A stretch of DNA of 64,000 nucleotides from an uncultured Solirubrobacterales bacterium (GCA_963770315.1 CAVYPC010000002.1:2227168-2291167), one strand, 5' to 3'. Numbered from the stretch's first letter, positions 44,289 through 61,436 are shown. Numbers and translations are program-made. The notes: generated by a model from the letters alone, not told the origin.

Positions 44289-44813
44289 CTAGATCTTCTT
44301 GACTTGGTCGTAATTGACCTCGACCGGCGTCTCGCGGCCGAAGATCGAGACCAGCACCTTGAGTTTGGCGGCGTCCTCGTTGATCTCGGCGATCTCACCG
44401 GAGAAGTCGGAGAGCGGGCCGGAGATGACCTTGACCGACTCGCCGATCGAGAACTGCGCCTGGGTGCGGGGGCGCTCGGCGGTCTCGCGGTGCAGCAGGC
44501 GGTCGACCTCCGGTTTGGAGAGCGGCACCGGCTTGTTGCGGGAGCCGACGAAGCCGGTCACCCCGGGGGTGTTCTTGACCAGTCCCCAGGCGTCGTCGGT
44601 CATCTCCATGTTGACCAGGACGTAGCCGGGCATCGTCCGTTTCTCCTTCGGTTCTTTCTGGCCTTCTTTGTTGACCTCCATCACCTGCTCGGTCGGCACC
44701 ACGACCTGGCGCACGTTGCGGTTCTGGGCCATCGTCTGCACCCGGTGCTCGAGGTTGTGCTTGACCTTGTTCTCGTGCCCGGAGTAGGTGTTGATCACGT
44801 ACCAGCGATACAT
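44289..44813 (-). CDS. nusG: transcription termination/antitermination factor NusG
   Basis: 174 aa. WYVINTYSGHENKV NGN domain and KOW motif GESVKVISGPLSDFSGEI. Confidence 0.96.
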   Translation of the reverse strand: MYRWYVINTYSGHENKVKHNLEHRVQTMAQNRNVRQVVVPTEQVMEVNKEGQKEPKEKRTMPGYVLVNMEMTDDAWGLVKNTPGVTGFVGSRNKPVPLSKPEVDRLLHRETAERPRTQAQFSIGESVKVISGPLSDFSGEIAEINEDAAKLKVLVSIFGRETPVEVNYDQVKKI

Positions 44814-44842
44814 CTAGAGGTCGCCTTTGTCTTGGGATCCCG

Positions 44843-45367
44843 CTAAAGGATCTGCTTGATGAGGAAGCTGAAGGCGCTGTCGAGAGCGCCGAGATAGGTG
44901 GCGGCGACGGCGACGAAGATGATCGTCACGGCGGTCGCCTGCACGAGGGTTTCGCGATCCGGCCACTGGACTTTGCGCAGCTCTGCCCAGCAGGAGACCA
45001 GGAAGCCGATGACGCCGCCGCGCTGGCGCTTCTCCGCCTGCGCCTGTTTCTGGCGCTTGGAGAGCTGCTCGCGCTCGCGGCGCTTCTGCTCCTCGCGCTT
45101 GCGCTTCTCGGCCTGCTTGGCCTCCTTCGCGTCGGCGCGGCGCAGGCTGCGGGGCTTGGGCGCGTCCGGGGTCTCGAGCTCGGCTTCGGAGGCGCCGGCC
45201 GCGATCCCAGCCTCTACCGCCTCGATCTCGGCGATGTCGCCCGAGACCGGGACCTGGGTGTCGTGCTGGGCCCGCGAGTCGGACTTGCGGCTATCGCCGG
45301 AGCGTTTCTGCTCTTCGGCTTCGCGGGCGCGGCGCTCGGCCTTGCGCTGTGCGCGGGTTTTGGCCAT
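44843..45367 (-). CDS. secE: preprotein translocase subunit SecE (long charged N-terminal extension)
   Basis: The C-terminal 60 aa, FLVSCWAELRKVQWPDRETLVQATAVTIIFVAVAATYLGALD, form the SecE TM core. Confidence 0.9.
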   Translation of the reverse strand: MAKTRAQRKAERRAREAEEQKRSGDSRKSDSRAQHDTQVPVSGDIAEIEAVEAGIAAGASEAELETPDAPKPRSLRRADAKEAKQAEKRKREEQKRREREQLSKRQKQAQAEKRQRGGVIGFLVSCWAELRKVQWPDRETLVQATAVTIIFVAVAATYLGALDSAFSFLIKQIL

Positions 45368-45373
45368 CGCCCT

Positions 45374-48788: not shown

Positions 48789-48861
<73 letters not shown>

Positions 48862-48889: not shown

Positions 48890-49366
48890 TCATCCTGAGC
48901 CGCCGCGCGCGACCCGCTTCGCCTCGGCTGCACCGAGGTAGGGCGTAAGGACGAACTGGGTCGCCTCCGGAGCGATGGCGGGGAGCTCGCTGCAGCGGTC
49001 GAAGTTGAGGCGCTGGGCGATCAGCATGGCGACACCCCCCACCATCGTCTTCTCGGTGATCTCGGGAAGCCACTCACCCTCCTGGCGCTCGGCGCGCCCT
49101 GGCTGCAATGCAGCGGCGAAATGCTCGATCATGCGGTCGTAGCGGGCAAAACCCGCCCTGCCCCCCGCCATCGCCTCGTTGGTCAGAACCTGGGCCGCAG
49201 CGGGATCCGCGGCGGCGAAGGTAAGCGCCGCCCGAATGCCGGCCGACACCTTTGCCGGCCACCCGGCCTCGGAGGCGCAAGCCGTCTCGACGCGAATCTG
49301 CAGGCGGGCTAGAGCGGACTCAAAGGCGGTTGCGAAATCGTCAGGGTGCCGTGCCTCGTCCCTCAT
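48890..49366 (-). CDS. hypothetical protein resembling a TetR-family C-terminal (ligand-binding) domain without an HTH
   Basis: About 158 aa from MRDEARHPDD. All-helical pattern AFESALARL...GIRAALTFAAADPAAAQVLTNEA...VGGVAMLIAQRL. No HTH is encoded in any frame upstream. It overlaps the 3' end of the 970-aa gene. Confidence 0.4.
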   Translation of the reverse strand: MRDEARHPDDFATAFESALARLQIRVETACASEAGWPAKVSAGIRAALTFAAADPAAAQVLTNEAMAGGRAGFARYDRMIEHFAAALQPGRAERQEGEWLPEITEKTMVGGVAMLIAQRLNFDRCSELPAIAPEATQFVLTPYLGAAEAKRVARGGSG

Positions 49367-52253
49367 GCCCCGCCGCGCCGCGCTTCGCCGTCCGCGCTCG
49401 CTTGTGCTTGCCTTTCCTCTTCCCCCCACAGTCAGCCCGCATCACAGGGCTGGCGCTCGACCGCTTCCCGTTATGCCCAGTGAAGTCCACAGCGGCCTTC
49501 GAGGTAGCCCCACACAGGTTGCGGCTGTTGACGATCAGCCCCTTCTTGCCGCCCTGCATCTTCAAGACGACTTTGGAGAGCGGCGCGTCCGGTGAGTTTT
49601 CAAGCGTAGCCCTGATCCCGCCGTTGGCGGAGTCGATCCGAACGCTGACCTCGACATCGACTAAGCCGTGCAGATCGAAGACGAGATCCGGCAGCTTGTG
49701 GCTCGAGGACCTAAGCCAGACCGGCCCTTCGAGCGGTTCTTCGAGCAGCGGCGTCCAGGCTTTGATGAAGCCGTACTGGGCTCCGGGAGGACAGGCCTTG
49801 GCGGCGAACTGGACGCGGGTGCAGATCGTCCTGATGTGGGCCTGGTCGAGGAATGCGGATCTCGGCAATCTCACAACTAGGTCTTTGACGTTGGCATCGC
49901 CTTTTCTCGGCGTGTAGGTGGCGATCAACCCCGGGTGCCCGCCGCGCTTGGTGCCGCCTTTGAGAGCCAGGTCGAGCTTCGGCTTGAAGCCCAGGTTCAG
50001 GCAGTTTGCGGCCTGGTAGCGATCTGAGAGCGCTACCGGGACGTCGTCGGATGGATCGAAGACGTTCAGGTAGGAGCCAAAGAGAGTCGCTTTGGCGCTC
50101 GATTCATCGCAACCCGTCGGGTTGAGGAGGAAGTTATGCCGATCTACGTAGACCCTCAGGTCCCTGACCTTCAAGACGATGCCGTCGAGGATGTGGGGGA
50201 TCGGGTCTGAGTTGGCGCCGTCGACTTCGACTTCGGCGGTCTTTGAGTTGAGGGTCAAAGCGAGCCTGACGACCACCGTTCCGGCGTCAAAGGGTCCGGC
50301 CACAGCCGGGGTCACCGAGATCACACTCAAGGGATCGCCGTGGTAGGGGCCTCCGAGGTAAATCTGGCCGCCGACGTAGGTCAGGGCTCCCCCCACTCCG
50401 GCTCCAGCCAGGGTGTGGCCGATCAGCGAGCTGGCGGGACAGCTTGGATTTGCGATCTCCTGGCGACCGGTCTTCGATCTGGCGACCGCGATCGCCGAAT
50501 CGGGGCATTTGCTCACTCCGACCAGGGAGCCGATCTCCCCCGGGGGCAGGATCGAAGAGAACTTGGTCATGTCCTGTTCGCCGTCTGATCTGATCAAGCG
50601 CATGTTGAAGGGAGAGAAAGAGCCGGCGTTGTTGTTCAGCGCTCCGGCGCTGAAGCCGGGATGGAAGGGCGGCACGCCCCCCGGTGGGCAGGGCCCTCCG
50701 CCGACTCCCCTGGTGATCTTGAAAGAGGAGGTCGCCGTGGTCGGGTTACTGGGATCCGACCAGGGGTAGAACTTTGCCTCGGTGGTGTAAGTGCCGCAGG
50801 CCGATGGGGTGATCAGCGGCGCCCTGGCGCCTTCTTTGAAGTGGAAGTTGAAGTGGCCGATCGGGACCTGGGGGCTGTTTTCCAGGGTCGCGACGAGTTG
50901 CCCGGTTTTCGGATCCGGTTCCACTTTCAGCGGCACTTTTACGATCACGCCGAGGTTGGTGTTCCTCAGGACCAGGTAGAGCGCGATCAGGCTGTCGAAT
51001 GGGTTCTCCGCGCCTGGGGTGGTCGTCGCCGCGTCGTCTTGTTGGGCCAAGAAGACAGATCCGTTGATCGCTTCGTCCAGAACTGGCGTTTGAGTTTCAA
51101 GCGAACCCAGCTTGGAGGCCTCCGGGCAGCCTTCTCCCGGTTGGGAGTGAAGCGTCTCCTTGGCTATCTGGGCTGGGGTGCAGATCGCCAGGCCTTCTCC
51201 TACCGAGGGATTGATCGTCAGCCCTTCCGGCAGGGTGATCACCGCTTTCTTCACATAGGACTGGGCCAGCCCTTCGACGCTGGTCAGGCCTTCGTCTTTG
51301 AAGTCGACGTTGAAGTCCAGGCCCGAGCCGGTCTCCGCCGATTCGGTGCCGAGCTTGGATTCGGTCTTCGGTGAGAAGCCGAGTTTGCCGCAGCCGGTGA
51401 AGGGCTGGGGGTTGCCCTGGGCGTCGTGGATCGTCACCCCGCCTGAATCGGTGTCGAGCAGACCGTCTTTGTCGCCGTCGGTCCAGGAGGTCGCGTCATA
51501 GGTGATCGCCAGCGCTTCGGCGCAGTTGGTCGGCAAGGTGAGCAGCGGCCTTGGGTTGGGTGGGGTCGGGCAGAGCTCGCCGTTGCCTTCGAATTCGAAC
51601 TCGTCGATCGCGTCGCGCGCCAGTTCTTCGTGGGCTCTTTCCTTCAGGCATTCGCCGCGCAATCCGTCGTGGCTCGGGTCGCTCGGGTTGCCCCAGACCG
51701 TGATCTTGGAGCCGATCACTTCGACGACCTGCGGCGTCTTTCTCAGGAGGGCGATCACGTGGTAGGGGGCTTCGGGGCTGAGCACGAACTCGACCACGAT
51801 GTTTGCTTCGCCGCCGACGTTCCAACCGACCCGCAAGAGCACCCCGGGGGGCGTGGTCAGGTTGTAGACCGGCGAGGAGCGCCACCCTCCCAGGTCGAGT
51901 GAGACGGCGGTGACGCCGAGTTGGGTCTCGAGCGGGCAGTTGGCGCCCTGCAGGAAGGCCAGCGAGGAGCAGCGCGGGTAGGCGGTCGGGTCGCCGATCA
52001 AGCCGGGTGCCAGATGGCTGAAGAAGTCCTTGAGCCGCCCTTCGGCGAAGGGGCCTTTTTCGTCTTCGGCGAAATTGACCCCGAAGGATCCCGTCACCGC
52101 ATAGGGATGGGATCCCGCCTGGGTTGCCATGCTGCCGTCTTCGTTGGTGAAGATGAAATCGAAGCCGAAGAGGCCGAAGTGGGCCTGGGCTGCAGCAGGG
52201 GCGAAGGCCGCGCCGGCGAGGGCGATCGCAAAGATCGAGATCAGGCGCTTCAT
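49341..52253 (-). CDS. 970-aa secreted Cys-rich protein of unknown function
   Basis: Start MKRLISIFAIALAGAAFAPAAAQA (signal peptide) after a GGGAGGG SD, with an ATGA overlap with the upstream gene's stop. Motif TQAGSHPY. Many paired Cys residues. Lys/Arg-rich C-terminal tail. I recognise no named domain. Confidence 0.8.
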   Translation of the reverse strand: MKRLISIFAIALAGAAFAPAAAQAHFGLFGFDFIFTNEDGSMATQAGSHPYAVTGSFGVNFAEDEKGPFAEGRLKDFFSHLAPGLIGDPTAYPRCSSLAFLQGANCPLETQLGVTAVSLDLGGWRSSPVYNLTTPPGVLLRVGWNVGGEANIVVEFVLSPEAPYHVIALLRKTPQVVEVIGSKITVWGNPSDPSHDGLRGECLKERAHEELARDAIDEFEFEGNGELCPTPPNPRPLLTLPTNCAEALAITYDATSWTDGDKDGLLDTDSGGVTIHDAQGNPQPFTGCGKLGFSPKTESKLGTESAETGSGLDFNVDFKDEGLTSVEGLAQSYVKKAVITLPEGLTINPSVGEGLAICTPAQIAKETLHSQPGEGCPEASKLGSLETQTPVLDEAINGSVFLAQQDDAATTTPGAENPFDSLIALYLVLRNTNLGVIVKVPLKVEPDPKTGQLVATLENSPQVPIGHFNFHFKEGARAPLITPSACGTYTTEAKFYPWSDPSNPTTATSSFKITRGVGGGPCPPGGVPPFHPGFSAGALNNNAGSFSPFNMRLIRSDGEQDMTKFSSILPPGEIGSLVGVSKCPDSAIAVARSKTGRQEIANPSCPASSLIGHTLAGAGVGGALTYVGGQIYLGGPYHGDPLSVISVTPAVAGPFDAGTVVVRLALTLNSKTAEVEVDGANSDPIPHILDGIVLKVRDLRVYVDRHNFLLNPTGCDESSAKATLFGSYLNVFDPSDDVPVALSDRYQAANCLNLGFKPKLDLALKGGTKRGGHPGLIATYTPRKGDANVKDLVVRLPRSAFLDQAHIRTICTRVQFAAKACPPGAQYGFIKAWTPLLEEPLEGPVWLRSSSHKLPDLVFDLHGLVDVEVSVRIDSANGGIRATLENSPDAPLSKVVLKMQGGKKGLIVNSRNLCGATSKAAVDFTGHNGKRSSASPVMRADCGGKRKGKHKRARTAKRGAAGHEGRGTAP

Positions 52254-55200
52254 CGTTTGGCCCTCCCGTTGTGGTTGGCGGTTCGGCTTGCCTTTTGCTT
52301 TGCGCCTCGCTTGAGGCAGCGGACCTTGCCCGCCCTGCGCACCTGGCGGCGGCCTTTGGCGCAGCGTCGCTTCGAGGGCGCTTTTTTGACGGTGCTGCCG
52401 GGACCGCGGAGAGAGGAAGAGGCAGGGGTCGGATCGTTTGGCGCCGAGACCGGGCCCTGGCAGGCTTCGCCTTCGCACTGGGGCCGCTCGGGGAGCTGGG
52501 GGAAGCCGCCGCCTACGCGGGCGTCATAGAGGTCGACCGAGCCGGGATCCTGGGGCAGGAGGCTCGATTCGGTGGTGAAGAAGACATCTGCCCCATCCGG
52601 GCTCGCTTCCCAGAATTCCGATTCGAAGGGGCTTTCGCCGCTCGAGATCAGATACAGGCAGCCGCCATTTTGGGGGAAGTAGGAGGAGCTTTCTTCGTTA
52701 CAGCCCCCCGTTCCCGGCGCCTCCCACTCATAGACGTCCTGGGCGCCGTTGGTGTCGCGCGGCAAGAGCGCGTCGTTTGAGTTGAAGAAGAGGCGCTTGC
52801 CGTCGGCGGAGAGGACGTTTGAGGCGTGCAGCGGGTGTTCCCAGGTGGGGATCCAGGCTGCGGCCTGGACTTTGGTTTCGCGGCCTTCTTGTCTGTACGG
52901 TTCTGGGAGTTCGCGGGTGGCGGGACGTGCGCCGCTCGGGTTGCACGAGATGCAACGCAGCTGCCCGCCTGCGGTGTAGGTGTAGACCTCTACCGCTGGC
53001 TTGCCGCTGCTCGCGGCGGAGTTGTCGAAGTTGGTTAGAGGCGCGCGCGACTCGAAGGCGATGCGAGAGCCGTTGGGGCTGACCCTGGTGGCGCGGCGGT
53101 ACGTGCTCCGATCGGCGATGTTGTAGGCGGTGGTAACCGCGCCGAGGTCTTTTACGCCGGCGTCGCTTTCGAGCACGGTGGCGACAAACTCGAAGGAGCC
53201 CGAGCCGGCTTCGTAGAGGTAGAGGTTGGGCTTGCCCGCGCTCGCTTCATCGCCCTCGCTGTTTTGCCCAGATCCCGCCAACACGTCGGTGGAGAGGAAG
53301 TAGACGCGCGAGAGGTCCTGCGAGAAGCCAGCCACTCCTCCTTGGCTAGCGCCGCCTTCGAACGCCCTGACATGGTGGGCGATCAGCCTCGACGCTTCCC
53401 CCGCTTCGGCTTCGCCCAGGTCGAACTCGTAGAGGTCTTGGCCTTCTGAGTAGAGGGCTTTGGAGCCATCGGAGGCGGCGGCCCAGAAGAAGGCGTTGTT
53501 ACCGGTGCTGACCGCGATCGTGCAGGCTTTGGTGGCTTTGGCGCATTCGCCTTTGACGATGCCCTGCTCGGGGTGGCGGCGCAGGTAGATCTTTCCTTCT
53601 TGACCGCCCGAGGTCCAGTAGACCAGCGAGCCGTCGGCGGAGACGGCACCTTCCTGGTTGGAATTCCGGCCGCTCCCGACCGCGGCGTCAGCGGTGTCGG
53701 CCGTGCCGCCGGGCAGGACGCTGACCAGGTGAAGACCACTGCCGAAGCGGTCATAGAGCTGGGCGTTCACTCCCGCGGCGGCATCGGCGGTGAGTGGCGC
53801 CTTGGCAAGGAAGATCGCGTGGCGGGAGTTGGCGGAGACGCCCTGGACCGAGTATGCGTCGACATAGTGGCTCCTTGCCTCGCCTTCGAGCGCCAGCGGG
53901 GCCGTGGTCAGCGTTTCGAAGCTGCCGGCGCCGGCGTCGCAGTTCTGGCGCCGGTAGAGGTTGGCGGCTTCGGGCTGGGCGTCGGGGTTCAAGGCCGGGG
54001 TCTGGTAGTCGACCAGCCAAGCGCTGCAGAGGTCAGGCGAGAAGGCGATGAATTCGCGAGAGGCGCCTGCCGCGATGCCGGGGATGCGGCGGCCCAGGTA
54101 GGGCGGGTGGATACCCTCGCTCGACCAGCCGGCTCCTTCCTGACGGGTGGCCAGGTACTGGTTGAACTTGAAGCTATTGGAAGGTTCCTCACCGAAGGCG
54201 GGGACCCCCTTGGTGGCGTAGGCGAGCCTCTCGCCGTCGGGGGACACCTGGACGTAGCCGCCGGGGTCCGAGTCACTGCTCGAGCCGCTGACGATGTCGG
54301 CGCCGTTTTTGTCGACCGGGCTGACCATCTCATAGGCGCGGCAGTCGGGCAGCGGGGCCGAGGCGCCGGTCCGGAAGGCATCGTTGGGGCAGGGCGCGGG
54401 GGGCTCGGGGCGCCGGTAGGTGGTGAGGGTGCGGTCTTCGCCTTCGCTCACACCGCCGTTTAAGACGGCGGTGTTGGTGCAGAGGTAGCGCCAGTGGTAG
54501 GTGGCGCCCGCTTTGAGGCCGGCGAGGAGGACCGGCAGCGGATGGTCGCCGCGGTCCGATCCGACGGAGACCTCCGGCGTGCTCTGCCCGTAAGAAGCAT
54601 CGGGGCCGTAGTCGACGTGACAGCTGGTCGGGAAGCCTTCGGGATTGACCAGCGCCTTCAAGGTGGCCTCGGTGTCCGTAGCGCTGATGACCTGCTCGGC
54701 GGAGATCGCCGGCGGGCCGAGGGTCTTGAAGCTCACATCGGGACTGGTCTCGGTTTCGCCGCCGATTTTTGCCCGCAGGCGGACGTGGTAGACGGTTGCC
54801 CCCTGCAGGGGACTGATGTCGGCGTGCACCGATACGGGGCTGGTGCCCGAGCCGATCGTCGCCGGGGACTCCGCGCAGGGGGCGGTGCTGCCATAGGCGA
54901 TCGTGGTGCCGTATTCGAAGCGGCATTCGCCGCTCAGCGCGCCGCCGGGGTTGACCGTGCCTTTGAGCGTGGCGCTGGTTTCGGTGACGTTGGTGGCGGG
55001 GAAGGCCCTCGCTTTGAAGCAGCCGACCGGTTCGGTGCCGTAGGCGCGGATGAAGGCTTTTCCGGTCCTATCGTCGCCGGGTGAGCTGGCTTCGCTGCTG
55101 AGGTTGGTGACGTAGAGGTTGCCCGGCGCTTCGCTTCCCGGGCAGAGGTTGGCGGCGAGGCCGGTGGAGGCGACGAATTCATCCTTGCCGAAGTGTTCGA

Positions 55201-57121
55201 CCACGTTGCCGGCGGGGTCGAACTCGAAGATCGGGTCGATCGGGACCGGGGTCCCGCCACCCACTCCGTTGACCGGGCCAAAGGCGTAGACGTGACCTGC
55301 CGCGGCGACGGCGACGGCCTTCGGGATCGGTTGGACTTCGCCAAGCTTGGGGATTTCAAAGCGCTCGAGCTCTTCGCATTCCCCGCCGGCGTTGAAGGAC
55401 AGCTTGCGCACACCCAGCTGGAATTCGTAGGCGGCGTAGAGCTTGCCCGCGGAGTCAGTGGCGAGCGACTGCACTTTGCCGGGCACCGAGCACTCGTCCT
55501 GGTAAGCGCCGCCGGTGTCGAAGCGCTGGATGCGGTTCTGATCGCCGACGTAGACCCTGTCGGTGGGGTCGATCGCGATGAAGTCGCCGATCCCCCATTC
55601 ACCGAACTCGCCTTCCTTGGCGCCTTTGCTGCCGGCTTTGCAGCTGTCGGCGGCTTTGCAGACCTCGGTGCCGCCGCCGTCGAGGAGGGTGGCGGTTATG
55701 TTGGCGGGCGAGACGTTCGCCTGGACTTCGGGCGCCGGCGGCGTGCTCGGCGCCGGGGAGGTGGCGAGGTTCTCGCTCAGCTTGGCGGCTTCGGAGAAGC
55801 CGGCGGCAAAGAGGCCGCTGGTCTTGACTTCGCACTGGAAGACCGCGGCGGCGGCGAGGTCGGCTGCGGTCACCGTGTAGGTCTGATTGCTGGCGTGTTC
55901 TTTGATGCTCTCGCCGTTGCGGTACCAGTGGTAGTTGAAGTTTCCACTGCTGTCCTTCCAGCCCGCTTCGCCTGGATCGCAGCTGAGCGTCTGCCCGCCA
56001 CCGCCGCCAACCGTGAGCGGGGCACTTGCTTCGGGGACAGGGATCGGGGTTGGATGGCGCGGGGCAGGGCGCCCGGGGGCCGGGGCGATCAGCTGCCCGG
56101 GGTCTGAGAGCTGGGTGGAGGCGGCGTCGGCGTTGGTGGCGGTGACCCGGCACTGGATCGCCTTGCCTTTGTCTTCTGCGGTGGCGATATAGGTGGAGGC
56201 GGTGGCGCCTTCGATCTCGCCGCCGTTGCGAAGCCACTGGTAGGAGATCGATTCGGCAACGGTCGGAGTCGAGCATTTGAGCTGGGCGCCGGCGTCGAGG
56301 GTGACGGTGAGCGGCGACACGTCATCGCCCGCGAGGTTGCCTTCGAAAGTGACGACGAAGGGGTTCGATCCGGTGACCGAGACCGAGCCGCCAACTCCGG
56401 CGATCGAGGGCAATGCATTCAGCGCGGTTTGGATTTCCGCGGCCGAGGCGTTGAAGGGCAGGGGAGCGGTTTCGGCGTTGGTCCCTTCTGGGAAGGGATT
56501 GGTGAAGTTCAGCCTGAAGGTCCCGGCGCTCTGGGCGATGGAGATTTCCTGGGTCTCTTTGTTGGTCGAGTCATCGGGGCCGAAAGCGACCGTGTCGCCG
56601 CCGAAAGCCGCGAGGAACTGGCCGGCGGGGGAGAACTTCTGCACGCGCTGGTTGGATGGGAAGCCAGTGTCGACAACGTAGACGTTGCCGGCGGAGTCGA
56701 CGGCGACGCCCTGGGGGGTGCCAAGCTGACCCGCGCCACTTCCTCCGACCCCCGCTTTGCAGACGTCGCCGTTATCGGGCACGCATATCTCAAAGCCCGT
56801 GCCGGTGTTGCCGGGTCCCGACTGGACCACGTCCCAGCCCCAGGTCTTGACGAATTCGCCCAGGGGGTTGAACTCGACGATGCGGTTGCCAATCAGATCG
56901 GCGACGAAGACGTGGCCGTCTTTGGGGTCGGCGGCCACACCGCTGGGAGAGTTGCACCGCTGGCCGGCCGGCTGGCCGCTATCGCAGCGCTGCCAGAGCT
57001 GCGGCGGGGCCGCGGAGGCGGCGGCCGCAACGAGGAGGAGGGCGCAGACGCAGACCGCCAGCGCGGCCAGCGCCCTCGCTGCGATTGGTCGCCTAGCCGG
57101 TGCCTTCCCCTTAGCCCTCAT
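52250..57121 (-). CDS. 1623-aa secreted multidomain protein (NHL-type blades, 2 Ig I-set-like, 2 FN3-like, PD40/TolB-like propeller, basic Cys-containing tail)
   Basis: I prefer the start at 57121 (MRAKGKAP...), which follows a GAGGAGAG SD; 57142 is an alternative. Signal peptide ALAALAVCVCALLLVAAAASA. Repeat motifs are quoted in the findings. Confidence 0.85.
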   Translation of the reverse strand: MRAKGKAPARRPIAARALAALAVCVCALLLVAAAASAAPPQLWQRCDSGQPAGQRCNSPSGVAADPKDGHVFVADLIGNRIVEFNPLGEFVKTWGWDVVQSGPGNTGTGFEICVPDNGDVCKAGVGGSGAGQLGTPQGVAVDSAGNVYVVDTGFPSNQRVQKFSPAGQFLAAFGGDTVAFGPDDSTNKETQEISIAQSAGTFRLNFTNPFPEGTNAETAPLPFNASAAEIQTALNALPSIAGVGGSVSVTGSNPFVVTFEGNLAGDDVSPLTVTLDAGAQLKCSTPTVAESISYQWLRNGGEIEGATASTYIATAEDKGKAIQCRVTATNADAASTQLSDPGQLIAPAPGRPAPRHPTPIPVPEASAPLTVGGGGGQTLSCDPGEAGWKDSSGNFNYHWYRNGESIKEHASNQTYTVTAADLAAAAVFQCEVKTSGLFAAGFSEAAKLSENLATSPAPSTPPAPEVQANVSPANITATLLDGGGTEVCKAADSCKAGSKGAKEGEFGEWGIGDFIAIDPTDRVYVGDQNRIQRFDTGGAYQDECSVPGKVQSLATDSAGKLYAAYEFQLGVRKLSFNAGGECEELERFEIPKLGEVQPIPKAVAVAAAGHVYAFGPVNGVGGGTPVPIDPIFEFDPAGNVVEHFGKDEFVASTGLAANLCPGSEAPGNLYVTNLSSEASSPGDDRTGKAFIRAYGTEPVGCFKARAFPATNVTETSATLKGTVNPGGALSGECRFEYGTTIAYGSTAPCAESPATIGSGTSPVSVHADISPLQGATVYHVRLRAKIGGETETSPDVSFKTLGPPAISAEQVISATDTEATLKALVNPEGFPTSCHVDYGPDASYGQSTPEVSVGSDRGDHPLPVLLAGLKAGATYHWRYLCTNTAVLNGGVSEGEDRTLTTYRRPEPPAPCPNDAFRTGASAPLPDCRAYEMVSPVDKNGADIVSGSSSDSDPGGYVQVSPDGERLAYATKGVPAFGEEPSNSFKFNQYLATRQEGAGWSSEGIHPPYLGRRIPGIAAGASREFIAFSPDLCSAWLVDYQTPALNPDAQPEAANLYRRQNCDAGAGSFETLTTAPLALEGEARSHYVDAYSVQGVSANSRHAIFLAKAPLTADAAAGVNAQLYDRFGSGLHLVSVLPGGTADTADAAVGSGRNSNQEGAVSADGSLVYWTSGGQEGKIYLRRHPEQGIVKGECAKATKACTIAVSTGNNAFFWAAASDGSKALYSEGQDLYEFDLGEAEAGEASRLIAHHVRAFEGGASQGGVAGFSQDLSRVYFLSTDVLAGSGQNSEGDEASAGKPNLYLYEAGSGSFEFVATVLESDAGVKDLGAVTTAYNIADRSTYRRATRVSPNGSRIAFESRAPLTNFDNSAASSGKPAVEVYTYTAGGQLRCISCNPSGARPATRELPEPYRQEGRETKVQAAAWIPTWEHPLHASNVLSADGKRLFFNSNDALLPRDTNGAQDVYEWEAPGTGGCNEESSSYFPQNGGCLYLISSGESPFESEFWEASPDGADVFFTTESSLLPQDPGSVDLYDARVGGGFPQLPERPQCEGEACQGPVSAPNDPTPASSSLRGPGSTVKKAPSKRRCAKGRRQVRRAGKVRCLKRGAKQKASRTANHNGRAKR

Positions 57122-57244
57122 CTGCTCTCCTCGCTGTCTCATCGGTGTGGATCGTCTGCGGCGTGTCGCTGGCGGTCGGACCGTGGAGGGCCTCCACCCC
57201 GGGCGGCTTGCCGCTCGGGGTGTCGACCGGCTCTCACTCGTGGG

Positions 57245-58075
57245 TTATCCGGCCACCGCCCAGACGCCACGGTTGATGCATTTGCCAAAGAGGCCCGTGG
57301 GGCAACTCAGCTTGAGCGAGGCTCCAGCCGGAGCCGTGGTGGCGCTTTCTCCGCCGTTGGTGGGGTTTTGGACGGCCACGGTCGCGGACGGGATGACCAG
57401 GCCCGGATTGATTTGGAACCCGACGCCGTAGACGCAGAGCTTGCCCGGGTTGGCCTGTGGCATGCCGCTGGTCACACCGGGGCAGCCGGCGGCGGTGCCA
57501 GTTTTCCCTTCGGCGTCTGCCGGGACGAAGACAAAGGTGGGTGCCGGGCTGACGGGAACCGAGAAGCTGGCCGAAGTCAGTTCTTCGCTTCCTTCCGCGG
57601 TGCCGTTGTTTGGTCCCTGGTAAGTGCCGGTCTCGGTGGCACCTGCGGGGAGAGTGCCGGTGGCAGTCCAGGGGGAGCCGTTGCAGGCGTAGTGGACGAC
57701 GCCCGAGCCTTCGACTGCGACTTCGTTGCCGCCGTTCAGTGCGCAGGGTTCCCCGGCCGGTTCTTCGTTTTCTTCGTCTTCGGCGCTGAAGGAGCCGACG
57801 ACTACCGACTTGCCGTTTGCCCCAGGAGCGCCGTTGGCTCCGTCTTTGCCGCTGGCGCCCGCGGGGCCTGCGGGGCCCTGCGGACCTGCCGGTCCGGCTG
57901 GACCCGTCGCGCCCTTGGGGCCCCGTGGGCCCTTCTTGGCCTTGGACTTCGAGGCCGCGGCCTTGCCGCCGCCGTTGTTGGTTGCGGCGTAGGCGCCGCC
58001 CATCATCGCGAAGACCAGGGCGATCACCGAGATCGCGCCCGGGATGCCGAAGCGGTTGCGCATTGGCGAGAACAT
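57245..58075 (-). CDS. collagen-like triple-helix repeat protein with N-terminal signal/anchor
   Basis: Start MFSPMRNRF after an AAGGAGAGAG SD. Hydrophobic segment GIPGAISVIALVFAMMGGAYA. 13 consecutive Gly-X-Y triplets (GPRGPKGATGPAGPAGPQGPAGPAGASGKDGANGAPGANGK). About 190-aa Cys-containing C-terminal domain. Confidence 0.85.
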   Translation of the reverse strand: MFSPMRNRFGIPGAISVIALVFAMMGGAYAATNNGGGKAAASKSKAKKGPRGPKGATGPAGPAGPQGPAGPAGASGKDGANGAPGANGKSVVVGSFSAEDEENEEPAGEPCALNGGNEVAVEGSGVVHYACNGSPWTATGTLPAGATETGTYQGPNNGTAEGSEELTSASFSVPVSPAPTFVFVPADAEGKTGTAAGCPGVTSGMPQANPGKLCVYGVGFQINPGLVIPSATVAVQNPTNGGESATTAPAGASLKLSCPTGLFGKCINRGVWAVAG

Positions 58076-58170
58076 CAAATCTCTCTCCTTGTCCCGTGAG
58101 CCCCTCTGCCTGCCGCTTCCCTTGCGGCTCCCTTGTGGCGAAGCTCGTTTGTTGGTCCCTGTAGCTACAA

Positions 58171-58193
58171 GGAACACGGACATCCGTGTTTCC
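58171..58193 (-). promoter_or_regulatory. inverted repeat in the predicted 5' leader of the collagen-like operon
   Basis: GGAACACGGA-CA-TCCGTGTTTCC, with one bulged T. Confidence 0.45.
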
Positions 58194-58207
58194 TATGTGC
58201 TGTGGGC

Positions 58208-58236
58208 ATTAAGACACACGTGTGTCTGAATGTCAA
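58208..58236 (-). promoter_or_regulatory. candidate sigma70-type promoter of the collagen-like operon, with a perfect 16-bp palindrome in the spacer
   Basis: On the minus strand, TTGACA (58236-58231) is followed by a 17-nt spacer and then CTTAAT (58213-58208). The spacer is almost entirely the palindrome AGACACACGTGTGTCT (58212-58227). Confidence 0.45.
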
Positions 58237-58271
58237 GGCCGGGGCGAAGAGCCGCTTTCAGCGCGTCAAAC

Positions 58272-58301
58272 TTGACAATTCTGGCGCTGAATTGTTACAT
58301 T
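58272..58301 (+). promoter_or_regulatory. candidate promoter of vapB-vapC pair 1
   Basis: TTGACA (58272-58277), an 18-nt spacer ending in TGT, and -10 TACATT (58296-58301). The ATG is at 58324. Confidence 0.45.
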
Positions 58302-58323
58302 ACATTGCCAGAAGTGATGTAAA

Positions 58324-58572
58324 ATGGCCCGCATGAAGCGACTGCAGATATCGATCGAGCCCGAGCTGGACGCGGCGGTGGAAAGACGCGCCGAAGAAGA
58401 GGGGCTCTCGAAGGCGGAGGTGATCAGGCGTTGCGTGCGGGAAGAGATACGGCCATTGCCGCCGATAGAGGAGGATCCGCTGTTCAAGATGTTCGGCACC
58501 GTGTCGAGCGACCCCGGCGACAACCGCTCGATCGACGAGGTCGTCTACGGGCCGTCGAACCCGGACCCCTGA
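58324..58572 (+). CDS. vapB: ribbon-helix-helix (CopG-type) antitoxin
   Basis: 82 aa. RLQISIEPELDAAVERRAEEEGLSKAEVIRRCV is an RHH pattern. It lies directly upstream of a PIN gene. Confidence 0.8.
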   Translation: MARMKRLQISIEPELDAAVERRAEEEGLSKAEVIRRCVREEIRPLPPIEEDPLFKMFGTVSSDPGDNRSIDEVVYGPSNPDP

Positions 58573-58970
58573 TCTTCGTAGATACCTCATTCCTGATCGC
58601 GGGCTTCGATGACCGCGATCCCCACCACCGGGAAGCCGTGCTTCTCGCCCAGCAAGTCGTCGGACGGCGAATGATCACGAGCAACCACGTTCGAGGCGAG
58701 AGCTGGACGTGGTTCCGCCGCAAGCGGTGGCACGGAAAGGCCGTTGAGCTCCTCGACGCTCTACGCTCGGGATCCAGCAACGTGCGAGTCGACTTCGTTT
58801 TGGAGAAGCTCGAGGACGAGGCGCTGCGCTGGCTCCGCCAGCACGACGAGTGCGAGTACTCGTTCGTCGACGCGACCAGCTTCGCCTACATGCGGGCCAA
58901 GGGCATCGAGGAGGCGCTCGCCTTCGACGGCGACTTCGCCGCCGCCGGCTTCACGGAATTGCGTCCGTAG
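58569..58970 (+). CDS. vapC: PIN-domain ribonuclease toxin (start codon non-canonical or unresolved)
   Basis: LIFVDTSFLIAGFDDRDPHH...SFVDATSFAYM...AFDGDF carries the PIN acidic residues. The only candidate start at the conserved N-terminus is CTG (58569-58571), which overlaps the antitoxin TGA. Confidence 0.8.
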   Translation: MIFVDTSFLIAGFDDRDPHHREAVLLAQQVVGRRMITSNHVRGESWTWFRRKRWHGKAVELLDALRSGSSNVRVDFVLEKLEDEALRWLRQHDECEYSFVDATSFAYMRAKGIEEALAFDGDFAAAGFTELRP

Positions 58971-58978
58971 CCCCTTCT

Positions 58979-60721
58979 TCAGCCGCCGTTGTTGAGGCCG
59001 GCCACGGGCGTGCCGTGGACGACGTCGGCGCAGAGGAGGGGCGGCGGATCGAAGGAGTCGGTGAGGGCGCGACCGGCGGGCGTGCCGTGGAGGATCGGTT
59101 CGGGGCGCGGGCCCTTCTTGGGCTTCGGCGGTTGGGTGTAGAAGCCGGCGCCGCACTGGATCACTTCGTCGCGGACGCCGTCGCGGGCGTCGATCGTGTC
59201 GTCGCCGCCGTTGCCGTAGAAGCGGTCGACGCCCGGTTGGCCGAGCATCGCGTTGGGGCCGCTGTCGCCGATCAGCACGTCGTAGTCGAAGGAGCCCTCC
59301 ATGTCCTCGTCGCTGGGATCGAGGCGGACCGGGTGGCAGCCCTTGACGACGTCGATCCAGGCTTTGTGCTGGAGAAAGGAGATGTAGAGGATGCCGGGGT
59401 GGGCCTGGGTCTCGGCGAAGGAGGCGTCGTCGCGGCCTTCGCCGCCGACGATCGCGCCGCCGGCGCAGCCGCCGCCCGCCGCGAGCAGGTCGCCGTTTCC
59501 TTCCCCATATAAGAAGGTCGGCCCGGGCAGGCCGCCGACCAACCCGTCGGCGCCGTCGCCGCCGTAGAGGCGGTCGGCGCCGGGACCGGACTCGAGCAGG
59601 TCGTCCTCGGGGCCGGCTTTGATCGTGTCGTCGCCGAAGCCGCCGGCGATTCGGACGTTCGCCGCGGCCTGCAGCGAGCCTTCGACCGTGAGCCGGTCGT
59701 TGCCGGGGCCGAGGTCGGCCATCAGCCAGCGCGCCGGCCCTTCGGTCGCGCAGACGACCCGCTTCGGGTCTTCCCCCGACCGCGTGCAGCCGGCGCCGAT
59801 CGCCACCCCCCTGGCGGCGGTGATGCCAAAGCTCTCCGAGGCTTCGTCGAAGGCGACGGTGAAGTCGTCGGGGCCGCCGCCGCCGACGATCGAGAGTCCC
59901 CCGCCGGTGCCTTTGGTGCGGTCGACCTGGATATAGGCCGAAGCCTTAGGCGGCGCTTCCTTGCCGCAGGAGACGGCGTTCTTCGCCCCGAAGCAGGCAT
60001 CGCTTCCCTGGCCGCCGACGATCGCGTCCTCCCCACCCCCGCCACGGATGACGTCGTCGCCGGGACCGCCGTTGATCGCGTTGTCGCCCTTGCTGCCGAT
60101 CAAGGTGTCGCGGAAGGCCGAGCCTTCGATGCTCTCCAGCCGGAAGAGGCGATCGTGGCCGTCGCCCCGGGCCCTGTGCCCGTGCAGCGAGACCCAGACG
60201 CCGTCGCCCCTGCCCCCTGCGACCTTGGTCGCGAAGGAGGCGATGTCGCCTTTGCCCGGGCCACCGTCCATGCGGTCGTAGCCGTAGTCGCCGTGGACGA
60301 GGTCGAATTCGCCGGGACCGCCGTTGAGGGTGTCGATGCCGAGGCTGCCGGCGACCTCATCGGCGTTGCCGGTGCCGCCGAGGATCTTGTCGTCGCCGAG
60401 GTCGCCGATGACGCGATCGGTCCCGGCCCCGCCGTCAGCCGTGTCGTTGCCGCGCCCGCCGTGGATCAGGTCGTCGCCGGGGCCGCCGCAGAGCAGGTCG
60501 TTGCCGAGGCTGCCGAGGATTTCGTCGTCCCCCCCACCGCCCCAGATCACGTCGCGGCCAGGGGTCCCGCGCAGCACATCCGACCCTTCGGTGCCGACGA
60601 TCTTCGCCCGCCGCCCGTGGCAGCGCGCTTCGTCTTCTTCCTTGACCGGCGCTGCGCCGAGGGCGAAAAAGGCGCCCAGCAGCACCAGCCCGATCGCGAT
60701 TCCCCTGCCCATCAACCTCAT
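58979..60721 (-). CDS. secreted protein with hemolysin-type (RTX-like) calcium-binding GGxGxD repeats
   Basis: Signal-like GIAIGLVLLGAFFALGAAP. Repeat runs GGGGDDEILGSLGNDLLCGGPGDDLIHGGRGNDTADGGAGTD and GGPGDDVIRGGGGEDAIVGGQGSD. The start is 60721 or 60712; the ORF-track start at 60754 lies in low-GC, probably untranslated, sequence. Confidence 0.8.
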   Translation of the reverse strand: MRLMGRGIAIGLVLLGAFFALGAAPVKEEDEARCHGRRAKIVGTEGSDVLRGTPGRDVIWGGGGDDEILGSLGNDLLCGGPGDDLIHGGRGNDTADGGAGTDRVIGDLGDDKILGGTGNADEVAGSLGIDTLNGGPGEFDLVHGDYGYDRMDGGPGKGDIASFATKVAGGRGDGVWVSLHGHRARGDGHDRLFRLESIEGSAFRDTLIGSKGDNAINGGPGDDVIRGGGGEDAIVGGQGSDACFGAKNAVSCGKEAPPKASAYIQVDRTKGTGGGLSIVGGGGPDDFTVAFDEASESFGITAARGVAIGAGCTRSGEDPKRVVCATEGPARWLMADLGPGNDRLTVEGSLQAAANVRIAGGFGDDTIKAGPEDDLLESGPGADRLYGGDGADGLVGGLPGPTFLYGEGNGDLLAAGGGCAGGAIVGGEGRDDASFAETQAHPGILYISFLQHKAWIDVVKGCHPVRLDPSDEDMEGSFDYDVLIGDSGPNAMLGQPGVDRFYGNGGDDTIDARDGVRDEVIQCGAGFYTQPPKPKKGPRPEPILHGTPAGRALTDSFDPPPLLCADVVHGTPVAGLNNGG

Positions 60722-60782
60722 CCGATAGAGAATACCATTTGGATTGCTATCCAATTTCGTTCATGCTCGCTATCCTTGACCG

Positions 60783-61007: not shown

Positions 61008-61019
61008 CACTCCGCCCCG

Positions 61020-61436
61020 GTGCCCGCCTTCATTGCCGACAAGAGCGCCCTGACCCGTCGCGAGACCCGGCCGGAGGTGCGCGAAGTGCTGGAGCCGTTG
61101 CTGGTGGCGGGAGAGATCGCGACCTGCGGCATCGTCGACCTGGAGCTTCTCTACAGCGCCCGGGACCGCGCCACCTACCGAGCCCTGGTCGAGGCCCTGC
61201 GAGGGATGCCCCGGGTACCCGTCGAGGACGCAGCAGTGAGCCGAGCGCTCGAGGTCCAGGCGATGCTCGCCGAGCGCTCCCAGCATCGCGCGGTCCCGCT
61301 TCCCGATCTGCTGATAGCGGCCTGCGCCGAGCTGGCGGGGCTGGCGGTGCTGCACTACGACGCCGACTTCGAGCGGATCGCGGAGCTCACCGGCCAGCCC
61401 GTGCAGTGGATCGTCCCTCGCGGCAGCGTGTCGTAG
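61020..61436 (+). CDS. vapC: PIN-domain ribonuclease toxin
   Basis: 138 aa. FIADKSAL...DLELLYSA...PDLLIAACA...LHYDADFE carries the PIN acidic residues. Confidence 0.85.
   Translation: MPAFIADKSALTRRETRPEVREVLEPLLVAGEIATCGIVDLELLYSARDRATYRALVEALRGMPRVPVEDAAVSRALEVQAMLAERSQHRAVPLPDLLIAACAELAGLAVLHYDADFERIAELTGQPVQWIVPRGSVS

Follow-up and report, generated by a model that had tools for sequence, protein, structure and literature searches.

The stretch of DNA analysed here, which we refer to as the window, comprises 64,000 nucleotides from an uncultured Solirubrobacterales bacterium (GCA_963770315.1 CAVYPC010000002.1:2227168-2291167) and has a G+C content of about 67%. Positions 48890-58075 of its minus strand carry four open reading frames (ORFs), and our ORF check bore out both their common direction and the coordinates given for them in the original prediction, a short note made from the sequence alone. 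According to our analysis, the locus is one of several paralogous copies of an operon cassette that is specific to a lineage of soil Solirubrobacterales with small genomes. The cassette is centred on the genes for a giant protein (here G) and a 970-aa protein (here O). The features of the cassette are listed below in the direction of transcription.

58207-58236, minus strand: candidate promoter, with the -35 element TTGACA at 58231-58236, a 17-nt spacer and the extended -10 element TGTCTTAAT at 58208-58216
58212-58227, minus strand: 16-bp perfect palindrome AGACACACGTGTGTCT, which fills the promoter spacer and occurs once in the window
58173-58190, minus strand: second inverted repeat, AACACGGA-TG-TCCGTGTT, directly 3' of the predicted transcription start
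58078-58170, minus strand: cassette leader (5' untranslated region) of about 93 nt, consensus ACAGGGA..CCGAGC..GCCGC-(A)AGGGAA-GCGGCCGGCAGAGGGGCTCNNGGGACAAGGAGAG, ending at the Shine-Dalgarno (SD) sequence of the first gene
57245-58075, minus strand: collagen-like protein, 276 aa, Pfam Collagen, the cassette's optional first gene
52250-57121, minus strand: giant G, 1623 aa, with signal peptide, NHL, FN3-like and PD40 regions and a polybasic tail
49341-52253, minus strand: O, 970 aa, with signal peptide, an array of immunoglobulin (Ig)-like domains and a polybasic tail, ATGA-coupled to G
48890-49429, minus strand: homologue of the TetR C-terminal domain without a helix-turn-helix (HTH), about 158-179 aa depending on the start codon, overlapping the 3' end of O

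With the start codons chosen in the original prediction, the 1623-aa (52253-57121) and 970-aa (49344-52253) products are exact public protein entries which, together with an identical entry for the 276-aa collagen-like protein, belong to one contig of 2,840,676 bp. The stop codon of G and the start codon of O do overlap in ATGA, with the SD sequence GGGAGGG upstream of O, and the collagen-like gene (AAGGAGAGAG) and the giant (GAGGAGAG) likewise have SD-like sequences before them, in agreement with what had been claimed for all three large genes. A gap of 123 nt separates the collagen-like gene from G, and the minus strand within the gene cluster showed no terminator-like site. The N-termini of the collagen-like protein, G and O are basic, then hydrophobic, and end in an AXA signal of the Sec type. 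All three proteins are rich in Cys. We regard it as plausible, as had been proposed, that the genes form a dedicated, co-transcribed set of Sec-exported proteins.

We compared 75 genomic loci, all from metagenome-assembled genomes (MAGs), of which 73 are assigned to Solirubrobacterales, one to Dormiibacterota and one to Actinomycetota; the complete chromosomes measure 2.5-2.9 Mb. The original prediction would have failed if its three large genes never co-occurred in other genomes. The giant and the 970-aa protein do co-occur, at every evaluable locus: a G homologue lies directly upstream on the same strand in 70/70 O copies with upstream sequence, the tblastn match before O being the giant's C-terminal part with its FN3-like modules and PD40. 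The tblastn matches of G and O abut without a gap in 16 of these 70, and nine apparent exceptions are O ORFs with an N-terminal extension that abuts G. The two also occur as fusions, either as NHL-FN3-FN3-O (P0229, P0232, P0272) or as PD40-O (P0197). The conserved core of the cassette is an obligate G-O pair, translationally coupled and sometimes one protein. Clustering of the 948 ORFs at the 75 loci yielded only three large recurrent families, namely O (79 members), G (74 members) and a single TetR subfamily (121 ORFs, at 43 of the 75 loci), full-length members of which carry Pfam TetR_N. The usual gene order is T..T G O T, where T is TetR-like. The same clustering returned no transporter, catabolic or glycoside hydrolase genes recurring in the cassette flanks, and no recurrent sortase family. 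In some genomes two or three G-O units stand in direct tandem (L007, L025, L043, L005, L023, L030); for L007, L025 and L043 there is no leader match in the fetched DNA, in which the locus edge truncates the first unit, and this fits one long operon for the units. Locus L002 (DATCPU010000076.1) is a cassette on a 10.7-kb contig assigned to 'Candidatus Dormiibacterota', with an O 68% identical to that of the window; it is probably a mis-binned Solirubrobacterales contig, not a cross-phylum occurrence.

The giant G consists of a signal peptide, an NHL propeller with an insert of about 300 aa, two FN3-like modules, a PD40 region and a Cys-rich polybasic tail, the window copy containing 34 Cys residues. 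The earlier domain calls (Collagen, NHL, Ig, FN3-like and PD40) were all recovered by Pfam at the expected places. In G these are NHL (E 1.4e-11, 44.3 bits against a cut-off of 20), Ig_2 (E 4.7e-10, with Ig_3 weaker), an FN3-like Pur_ac_phosph_N match at residues 734-800 that falls below the curated cut-off, and PD40, whose 34.8 bits against a cut-off of 20.9 come from several weak repeats, likewise in the paralogues. In the PDB, the sequence matched NHL propellers, namely those of TRIM71, Pizza and PknD (lowest E 9e-19), while NCBIfam gave nothing further above its cut-offs for the window proteins. The Ig modules had been placed between NHL blades, and the propeller is indeed interrupted by the insert, which is made of a domain of about 95 aa followed by two Ig-like modules. 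Paralogues of G combine NHL, FN3-like and PD40 regions in 1260-1360 aa, and the window G is larger through this insert. The ~95-aa module (56222-56584, minus strand; G residues ~190-285), with the segments TFRLNFTNPF, NASAAEIQTALNALPSIAGVGGSVSVTG and VVTFEGNLAGDDV, has no Pfam match and may be an undescribed small domain; the giant of L013 has a similar segment (GQFKLSFGAPS, GGAEVEAALNALASIGGVGGAVSV, VVTFKGSLAATDV). Identification of G with TolB of the Tol-Pal system was rejected, TolB_N being absent in Pfam and the neighbours not being tol/pal genes.

The 970-aa protein O had been presented as an orphan in which no domain could be named. The second part of this description stands: searches of Pfam, NCBIfam, PHROGs, PADLOC and the PDB, the latter by sequence and by profile, gave no match for O, and six scanned relatives had essentially no Pfam coverage. 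The first part does not, since an exhaustive profile search returned at least 13,369 clusters at 50% identity, 5,341 of them at E <= 1e-30. A word-indexed search listed 2611 relatives, mostly full-length and either without a name or called 'hypothetical protein', and those bearing organism labels were from Solirubrobacterales MAGs; a search with a divergent O paralogue found members at 33-50% identity. Some divergent members have a CARDB/DUF11-like N-terminal extension (JGI label TIGR01451), and others are fused to NHL or PD40. The family extends far past the form seen in the cassette. Relatives of up to 7161 aa contain the C-terminal ~650-aa module of O as many as 15 times in tandem, as would be expected of a stalk. 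The giant relatives are P0241 (7161 aa), P0243 (6729 aa), P0242 and P0244-P0253; one giant cluster bears the JGI label 'Cu/Ag efflux protein CusF', and the cluster of P0241 has a member from an Actinomycetota MAG.

Alignment of O showed that the TQAGSHP motif is near-invariant, that many Cys residues (18 in the window O) are invariant and that the C-terminal tail, (D/E)CGGKRK.., is polybasic. The AlphaFold2 model of O, built from a 104-sequence alignment, has a predicted local distance difference test score (pLDDT) of 91.8 and a predicted template modelling score of 0.84; it consists of beta structure throughout, folded into about nine Ig-like sandwich domains. Foldseek searches of this model against the PDB and BFVD returned generic Ig/FN3/DUF11 rods only, with template modelling scores (TM-scores) of at most 0.25, and therefore no specific family is assignable to O. 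The matches include the Saf pilus polymer, integrin alpha legs, MG arrays of TEP/complement proteins, AgI/II and Als, and the top one, 5y9h, is a polymer of Ig-like subunits. Enzyme folds were absent, except for weak matches driven by transglutaminase beta-sandwich domains. The TEP/complement matches were of low probability with TM-scores below 0.1, and the idea of an A2M/TEP thioester protein was discarded, the C.EQ motif being absent from the window O and G and present in only 2 of 79 O relatives. Chaperone-usher (Saf-type) pili were likewise rejected, since the locus contains neither usher nor chaperone genes and the organism is a monoderm actinobacterium.

The first gene encodes a protein matching Pfam Collagen (PF01391) with E 8.8e-8 and 32.2 bits against a cut-off of 27.2; its run of Gly-X-Y comprises 14 consecutive triplets, one more than the 13 counted earlier. 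In 24 homologues we found a common anchor or signal, highly conserved as MFSP.RNRFGIPG.ISVIALVFAM.GGAYAA, Gly-X-Y runs of variable length and the head motifs CNGSPWTAGGTLP, GCPG, PGKLCVY and GVWAVTG. The unusually conserved N-terminal segment suggests a retained anchor and not a simple signal peptide. Within it, the leader-G/hydrophobic pattern ...RNRFG/IPGVISVIALVF... makes prepilin-like processing conceivable, and profile positions 13-65 (57881-58039) gave a very weak, non-significant profile match (E 0.028) to 'Geopilin domain 2 protein' 7tgg_a. The head is a Cys-containing beta-sandwich of 177 aa, for which the AlphaFold2 model is of moderate quality (pLDDT 68.9 overall, ~75-90 in the head). 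Foldseek of the model against the PDB gave no match at E <= 0.001; the best non-significant folds for the head were the R1 pyocin fibre tip and H-type lectins (E 0.5-0.9), and assignment of the head to either was not accepted, the likeness being a lead only. BclA/C1q heads were not among the top Foldseek matches of this model, with its head pLDDT of ~75-90, and a BclA-type exosporium glycoprotein was rejected because no C1q/TNF-like jelly-roll head was recognised. Membership of Scl1/Scl2 was rejected as well, NF038329 scoring 23.4 bits against a cut-off of 325 and the protein ending in ...GVWAVAG without LPXTG or a transmembrane segment. The PHROG and PDB profile matches lie mainly on the collagen repeat region. 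The collagen-like gene, which the original prediction counted in the set, does not belong to every cassette: it precedes G at 14 of 61 evaluable genome loci only and comes first in 39 of 109 metagenome contigs tagged by the leader; it is an optional first gene, found in ~25-35% of cassettes.

Nor is the locus a single occurrence, since the 2.84-Mb contig of the window carries at least seven O paralogues and the locus is one of at least seven paralogous cassettes in its genome. There are at least 11 copies of O in OY970321.1 (a 2.83-Mb genome), at least 7 in OY969794.1 and at least 5 in CAWINZ01, that is, 5-11 or more cassette copies per 2.5-2.9-Mb genome. The repeat unit of OY969794.1 spans ~6.9 kb, beginning at the leader and ending at the O stop. 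Its copies share 73-94% nucleotide identity between sharp borders, and the flanks are unrelated; at least 11 copies of such a unit would make up roughly 3% of a 2.83-Mb genome. By amino-acid identity, paralogues differ most over the N-terminal half of G and over O's first ~300 residues; identity peaks, at 90-100%, at the C-terminal end of G and in the last two-thirds (~650 residues) of O. In sliding windows (NG86; dS ~0.2-0.4), the dN/dS of O is 0.04-0.30 and that of G mostly 0.10-0.60, reaching 0.96 only in the poorly aligned first 100 columns, the signal-peptide region; values below 1 indicate that all examined copies are maintained by purifying selection. Within several genomes the O copies are 92-98% identical, whereas the best matches in other genomes do not exceed ~70-75%, even at the locus which is syntenic by its RTX gene (see below). 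When these RTX-syntenic loci are compared with the window, identity amounts to 68-81% for RTX and mostly 76-82% for the small ORF, but to 29-44% for G and 49-66% for O. The better conservation of the flanks than of the cassette, together with the likeness of copies within a genome, points to concerted evolution or replacement within genomes and to fast divergence of G.

Upstream of the collagen-like gene, the promoter has the -10 hexamer CTTAAT with an extended TG, 17 nt from TTGACA, and the palindrome in its spacer is a likely operator for a dimeric repressor. Promoter and palindrome are kept almost base for base in the eight loci that align (L005, L010, L014, L023, L027, L028, L053, L064), in which the DNA upstream of the conserved promoter is unalignable. 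The 18-nt inverted repeat is also kept in the aligned loci. In the minimum-free-energy fold it makes up the hairpin at the 5' end, and it might serve as a stem-loop at the start of the transcript or as a further operator. Promoter-proximal sequences differ in other cassettes, where they recur between genomes, and the leader is common to all promoter classes. A leader profile (nhmmer) gave 50 matches in 48 loci plus the window, all on the coding strand and located either directly before G or 800-950 nt before it with the collagen-like gene between, and none elsewhere in the fetched DNA. A strict pattern for the leader picked out at least 120 contigs in metagenomes (JGI), 109 of which have a scorable downstream ORF; this is a cassette gene in 103, namely G in 61 plus 2 short ones, the collagen-like gene in 39 and O in 1. 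A two-helix model of the leader is compatible with 95.6% of cells, two compensatory hairpin variants occur (in L003 and L019), and the fold z-score of the window leader is -1.82. Rfam 15 gave chance-level matches only for 57900-58400 (E >= 1.3, far below the gathering scores). The leader contains the GGA-rich motifs ACAGGGA, AAGGGAA in the hairpin loop and GGGACAAGGAG; with one GGA motif in the loop and one over the SD, the pattern may recall CsrA-type sites.

The small last ORF had been called TetR-C-like and HTH-less, and this call was right: it shows 30-47% identity over ~140 aa (tblastn) to the C-terminal domain of TetR_N-bearing paralogues, TetR_N being confirmed in those of L013 and L046, and has no HTH of its own. 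Pfam gave no match, TetR_N included, for the 179-aa form, whose N-terminus overlaps the coding region of O. Copies without HTH and with 65-85% identity lie directly after O at L005, L010, L023, L027, L038, L055 and L070; those of L005, L010, L023 and L027 co-occur with the palindromic promoter, and they are kept far better than G or O. The protein could be a ligand sensor, or a decoy which heterodimerises with full-length TetR paralogues. Leader, putative operator palindrome and TetR association, none of which figured in the original prediction, mark the locus as a regulated, amplified cassette.

The C-terminal ends of G and O are strongly basic, with a mean net charge over the last 30 residues of +12.3 for G and +7.1 for O, compared with -0.6 for the other locus ORFs; the tail of the window G is at about +12. 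Cys is nearly always present in both tails. Neither protein has a C-terminal transmembrane segment (the maximum Kyte-Doolittle value in a 17-aa window stays below 1 in the tails), and LPXTG-like strings were found in 0 of 75 O tails and 1 of 64 G tails. The tail scan agrees with the earlier statement that LPXTG and PEP-CTERM sorting signals are lacking, and sortase-anchored or PEP-CTERM-type sorting was rejected on this ground. Pfam and NCBIfam showed no similarity to S-layer or SLH/CWB anchoring domains.

Directly upstream of the cassette lie two elements which had been passed over, an RTX gene (58979-60754, minus strand) and a plus-strand RHH/PIN pair (58324-58970). The RTX protein has 591 aa and calcium-binding repeats (HemolysinCabind, E 8e-29); its gene is the syntenic upstream neighbour of the window-type cassette in six other genomes, where it is 68-81% identical, and is not within the duplicated unit. 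The RHH (CopG-like) antitoxin and PIN toxin form a VapBC-like pair between the RTX gene and the cassette promoter, with a sigma-70-like promoter of their own at 58272-58301. The RTX-syntenic loci lack this pair: they have only ~77-135 nt between the RTX stop and the cassette promoter or palindrome, so that the toxin-antitoxin pair is an insertion specific to the genome of the window. A second PIN-domain ORF (61008-61436, plus strand; E 8.5e-13) lies directly past the RTX gene. On the downstream side, a tRNA-Thr(GGT) gene (48789-48861, minus strand) follows the small TetR-like ORF at a distance of 29 nt and in the same direction; its transcription may be joined to that of the cassette, or the gene may mark a former site of integration or recombination. 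Further on are DUF480, DUF234 and acyl-CoA dehydrogenase genes and then secE and nusG (44289-45373, minus strand; Pfam-confirmed). The minus strand at ~15000-45400 contains large ORFs of 1205, 1388, 721 and 440 aa and many small ones. By size and order, those beyond secE-nusG look like the rplKAJL, rpoB/rpoC, fusA/tuf and S10-operon block, in which case the cassette borders the most conserved part of the chromosome.

We propose that the cassettes encode TetR-controlled surface complexes, in which variable propeller heads are carried on a conserved Ig-like stalk, and that their copies constitute a regulated binding repertoire, a reading which we consider the best of those weighed here and about as likely as not. 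Under this proposal, O would serve as a stiff Ig-like stalk or scaffold whose basic tail keeps it on the anionic envelope, a role suggested by the Ig-rod fold, the tandem-extended relatives and the conserved C-terminal part. G would dock on O by its conserved C-terminal propeller and tail and would present variable propeller heads for ligands such as polymers, other cells or particles, as its variable N-terminal half, conserved docking end and fusions to O suggest. The collagen-like protein would be an accessory, a stalk of three chains that is anchored in the membrane and bears a small beta-sandwich head. Cognate TetR-family repressors would switch each cassette at a locus-specific operator, and the common GGA-rich leader would put all cassettes under one post-transcriptional control. 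In its most ambitious form, which we think improbable, the proposal would describe a programmable surface-receptor repertoire of an abundant, uncultured lineage of soil actinobacteria, with variable heads, a gene-converted uniform stalk, a TetR network including HTH-less decoys and a new class of GGA-rich leader RNA; if true, it would be a monoderm counterpart of polysaccharide utilization locus (PUL)-like and variable-surface-protein systems, drawn from an unrecognised protein superfamily.

Several points weigh against this proposal. No sliding NG86 window has a dN/dS above 1, and diversification of the heads by positive selection is undemonstrated. Covariation in the leader, examined by RNAalifold and pair counting, is not significant, 73 of 500 shuffles having reached the observed score, and for this reason we describe the leader as conserved in sequence, with a plausible hairpin, and not as a proven structured RNA. 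The TetR genes stand outside the duplicated unit, and the window cassette has no full-length TetR neighbour. Most comparison loci were retrieved through O, so that the comparison cannot show G without O. Attachment of the complex to the anionic envelope by the polybasic tails is inferred, and the binding-head role is an assumption, NHL/PD40 propellers being capable of catalysis.

It is from catalysis that the main rival derives, in which the cassettes are inducible extracellular enzyme systems, with catalytic NHL and/or PD40 propellers (lyase, lactonase or peptidase-like, as in Vgb, PAL or SMP-30), O as carrier or substrate-binding scaffold and TetR proteins as small-molecule sensors, the whole amounting to a detoxifying or scavenging repertoire. 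The NHL region does match SGL/SMP-30 and the PAL lyase domain weakly in Pfam and the PDB, although these are repeat-level matches below the cut-offs (SGL 21.7 bits against 26.3). One homologue is labelled 'streptogramin lyase' at its source, the variable part of the cassette is the NHL half of G, and the strong TetR association would fit small-molecule induction. The flanks show no recurring genes for transport or catabolism. O is large, conserved and without an enzyme fold, and an obligate Ig-rod partner of 950 aa is not obviously needed by such enzymes. We deem an enzymatic role unlikely. Less likely again are two further readings. That G and O, with or without the collagen-like protein, form a bulk envelope structure (S-layer, sheath or nap) of which the paralogues are isoforms would agree with secreted, Cys-rich, all-beta proteins with basic tails, with strong SDs and a conserved leader, with the sizeable genome share of the cassettes at 11 or more copies, and with the analogy to collagen-like filaments such as BclA, to which there is a sequence-level match in the collagen region. 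Lattices, however, are usually made from one or a few highly expressed genes and not from 7-11 copies, each under its own regulation, with different promoters, the propeller-head architecture is more typical of binding proteins, and similarity to S-layer or anchoring domains is lacking; we consider this reading quite doubtful.

A derivative or cargo of a phage, tailocin or mobile element, encoding receptor-binding fibres, would account for the multi-copy distribution as well as for collagen repeats and a fibre-tip-like head. Matches to PHROG tail-fibre families were obtained for the collagen-like protein, the R-type pyocin fibre tip is the best, though non-significant, fold match of its head, the repeat-unit borders are sharp and a tRNA-Thr gene adjoins the window copy. 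The PHROG matches, however, lie mainly on the Gly-X-Y region and an Ig module, with none on O, and clustering of the 75 loci identified no phage structural, integrase or transposase family, the smaller families being without annotation. Loci are syntenic across genomes beside core genes, and all copies are under purifying selection. The anti-phage models of PADLOC matched none of five proteins, and on PADLOC, PHROG and locus clustering a phage or defence origin was rejected as the main explanation; we hold it to be very improbable.

Surface complexes of propeller heads on Ig-like stalks are thus the preferred reading. Within the library searched, no publication on the cassette system was found. 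The domains of G are of known kinds, while the O family, the G-O pairing, the multi-copy homogenised organisation and the common leader appear to be undescribed. The O family represents a large annotation blind spot, for which a confident predicted fold is now available; the pairing of G and O together with their fusions is a clear Rosetta-stone case; and the cassette-specific leader and operator-bearing promoters offer direct handles on regulation. That copies are homogenised within genomes suggests that a free-living monoderm has a multi-gene surface repertoire evolving in concert. Solirubrobacterales occur widely in soil, the leader alone matched at least 120 JGI contigs, and with many ~6.9-kb copies in small genomes the cassette products probably dominate how these cells meet their surroundings.

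Among known systems, integrin alpha ectodomains and further surface receptors of the propeller-plus-Ig type resemble the predicted complex in combining one or more propeller heads with a rigid series of Ig-like sandwich domains, and the PD40-O fusions have such a head-on-leg layout in one chain. Integrin alpha is among the top Foldseek matches of O (E ~1e-6), although the TM-score is only 0.11-0.15 and there is no sequence similarity; in the cassette, moreover, the propellers are NHL/PD40 and not FG-GAP, there is no transmembrane helix, head and stalk are usually separate polypeptides, and the arrangement is prokaryotic and multi-copy. The Ig-fold adhesins and pili of Gram-positive bacteria and others (AgI/II C-domains, Als, Saf, MSCRAMMs) are likewise Sec-exported tandem beta-sandwich rods, matching O by fold with E 6e-8 to 5e-4, and O has relatives with many tandem repeats. 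They differ in sequence, with which O has no homology, and the cassette lacks LPXTG/sortase and chaperone-usher genes, having instead a polybasic Cys tail as putative anchor and an obligate propeller partner. BclA and Scl1/Scl2 share with the collagen-like protein a Gly-X-Y triple-helix segment followed by a globular domain, and weak sequence matches to BclA/SclB extend over the collagen region. The cassette protein, instead, has only 14 triplets, a head without a significant C1q/TNF-like match and an N-terminal conserved hydrophobic anchor in place of LPXTG or an exosporium-targeting motif.

On the regulatory side, the flanking TetR_N paralogues and a palindrome overlapping the promoter spacer recall the classic operator arrangement of TetR repressor/operator switches, whereas the window copy of the regulator has no DNA-binding domain and the putative targets are huge secreted proteins, not efflux or catabolic genes. 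The SusC/SusD PULs of Bacteroidota are not homologous and have a TonB-dependent transporter, glycoside hydrolases and transport genes which the loci of this monoderm actinobacterium do not contain; by analogy only, their organisation is similar, as an obligate surface gene pair amplified in paralogous loci with flanking regulators.

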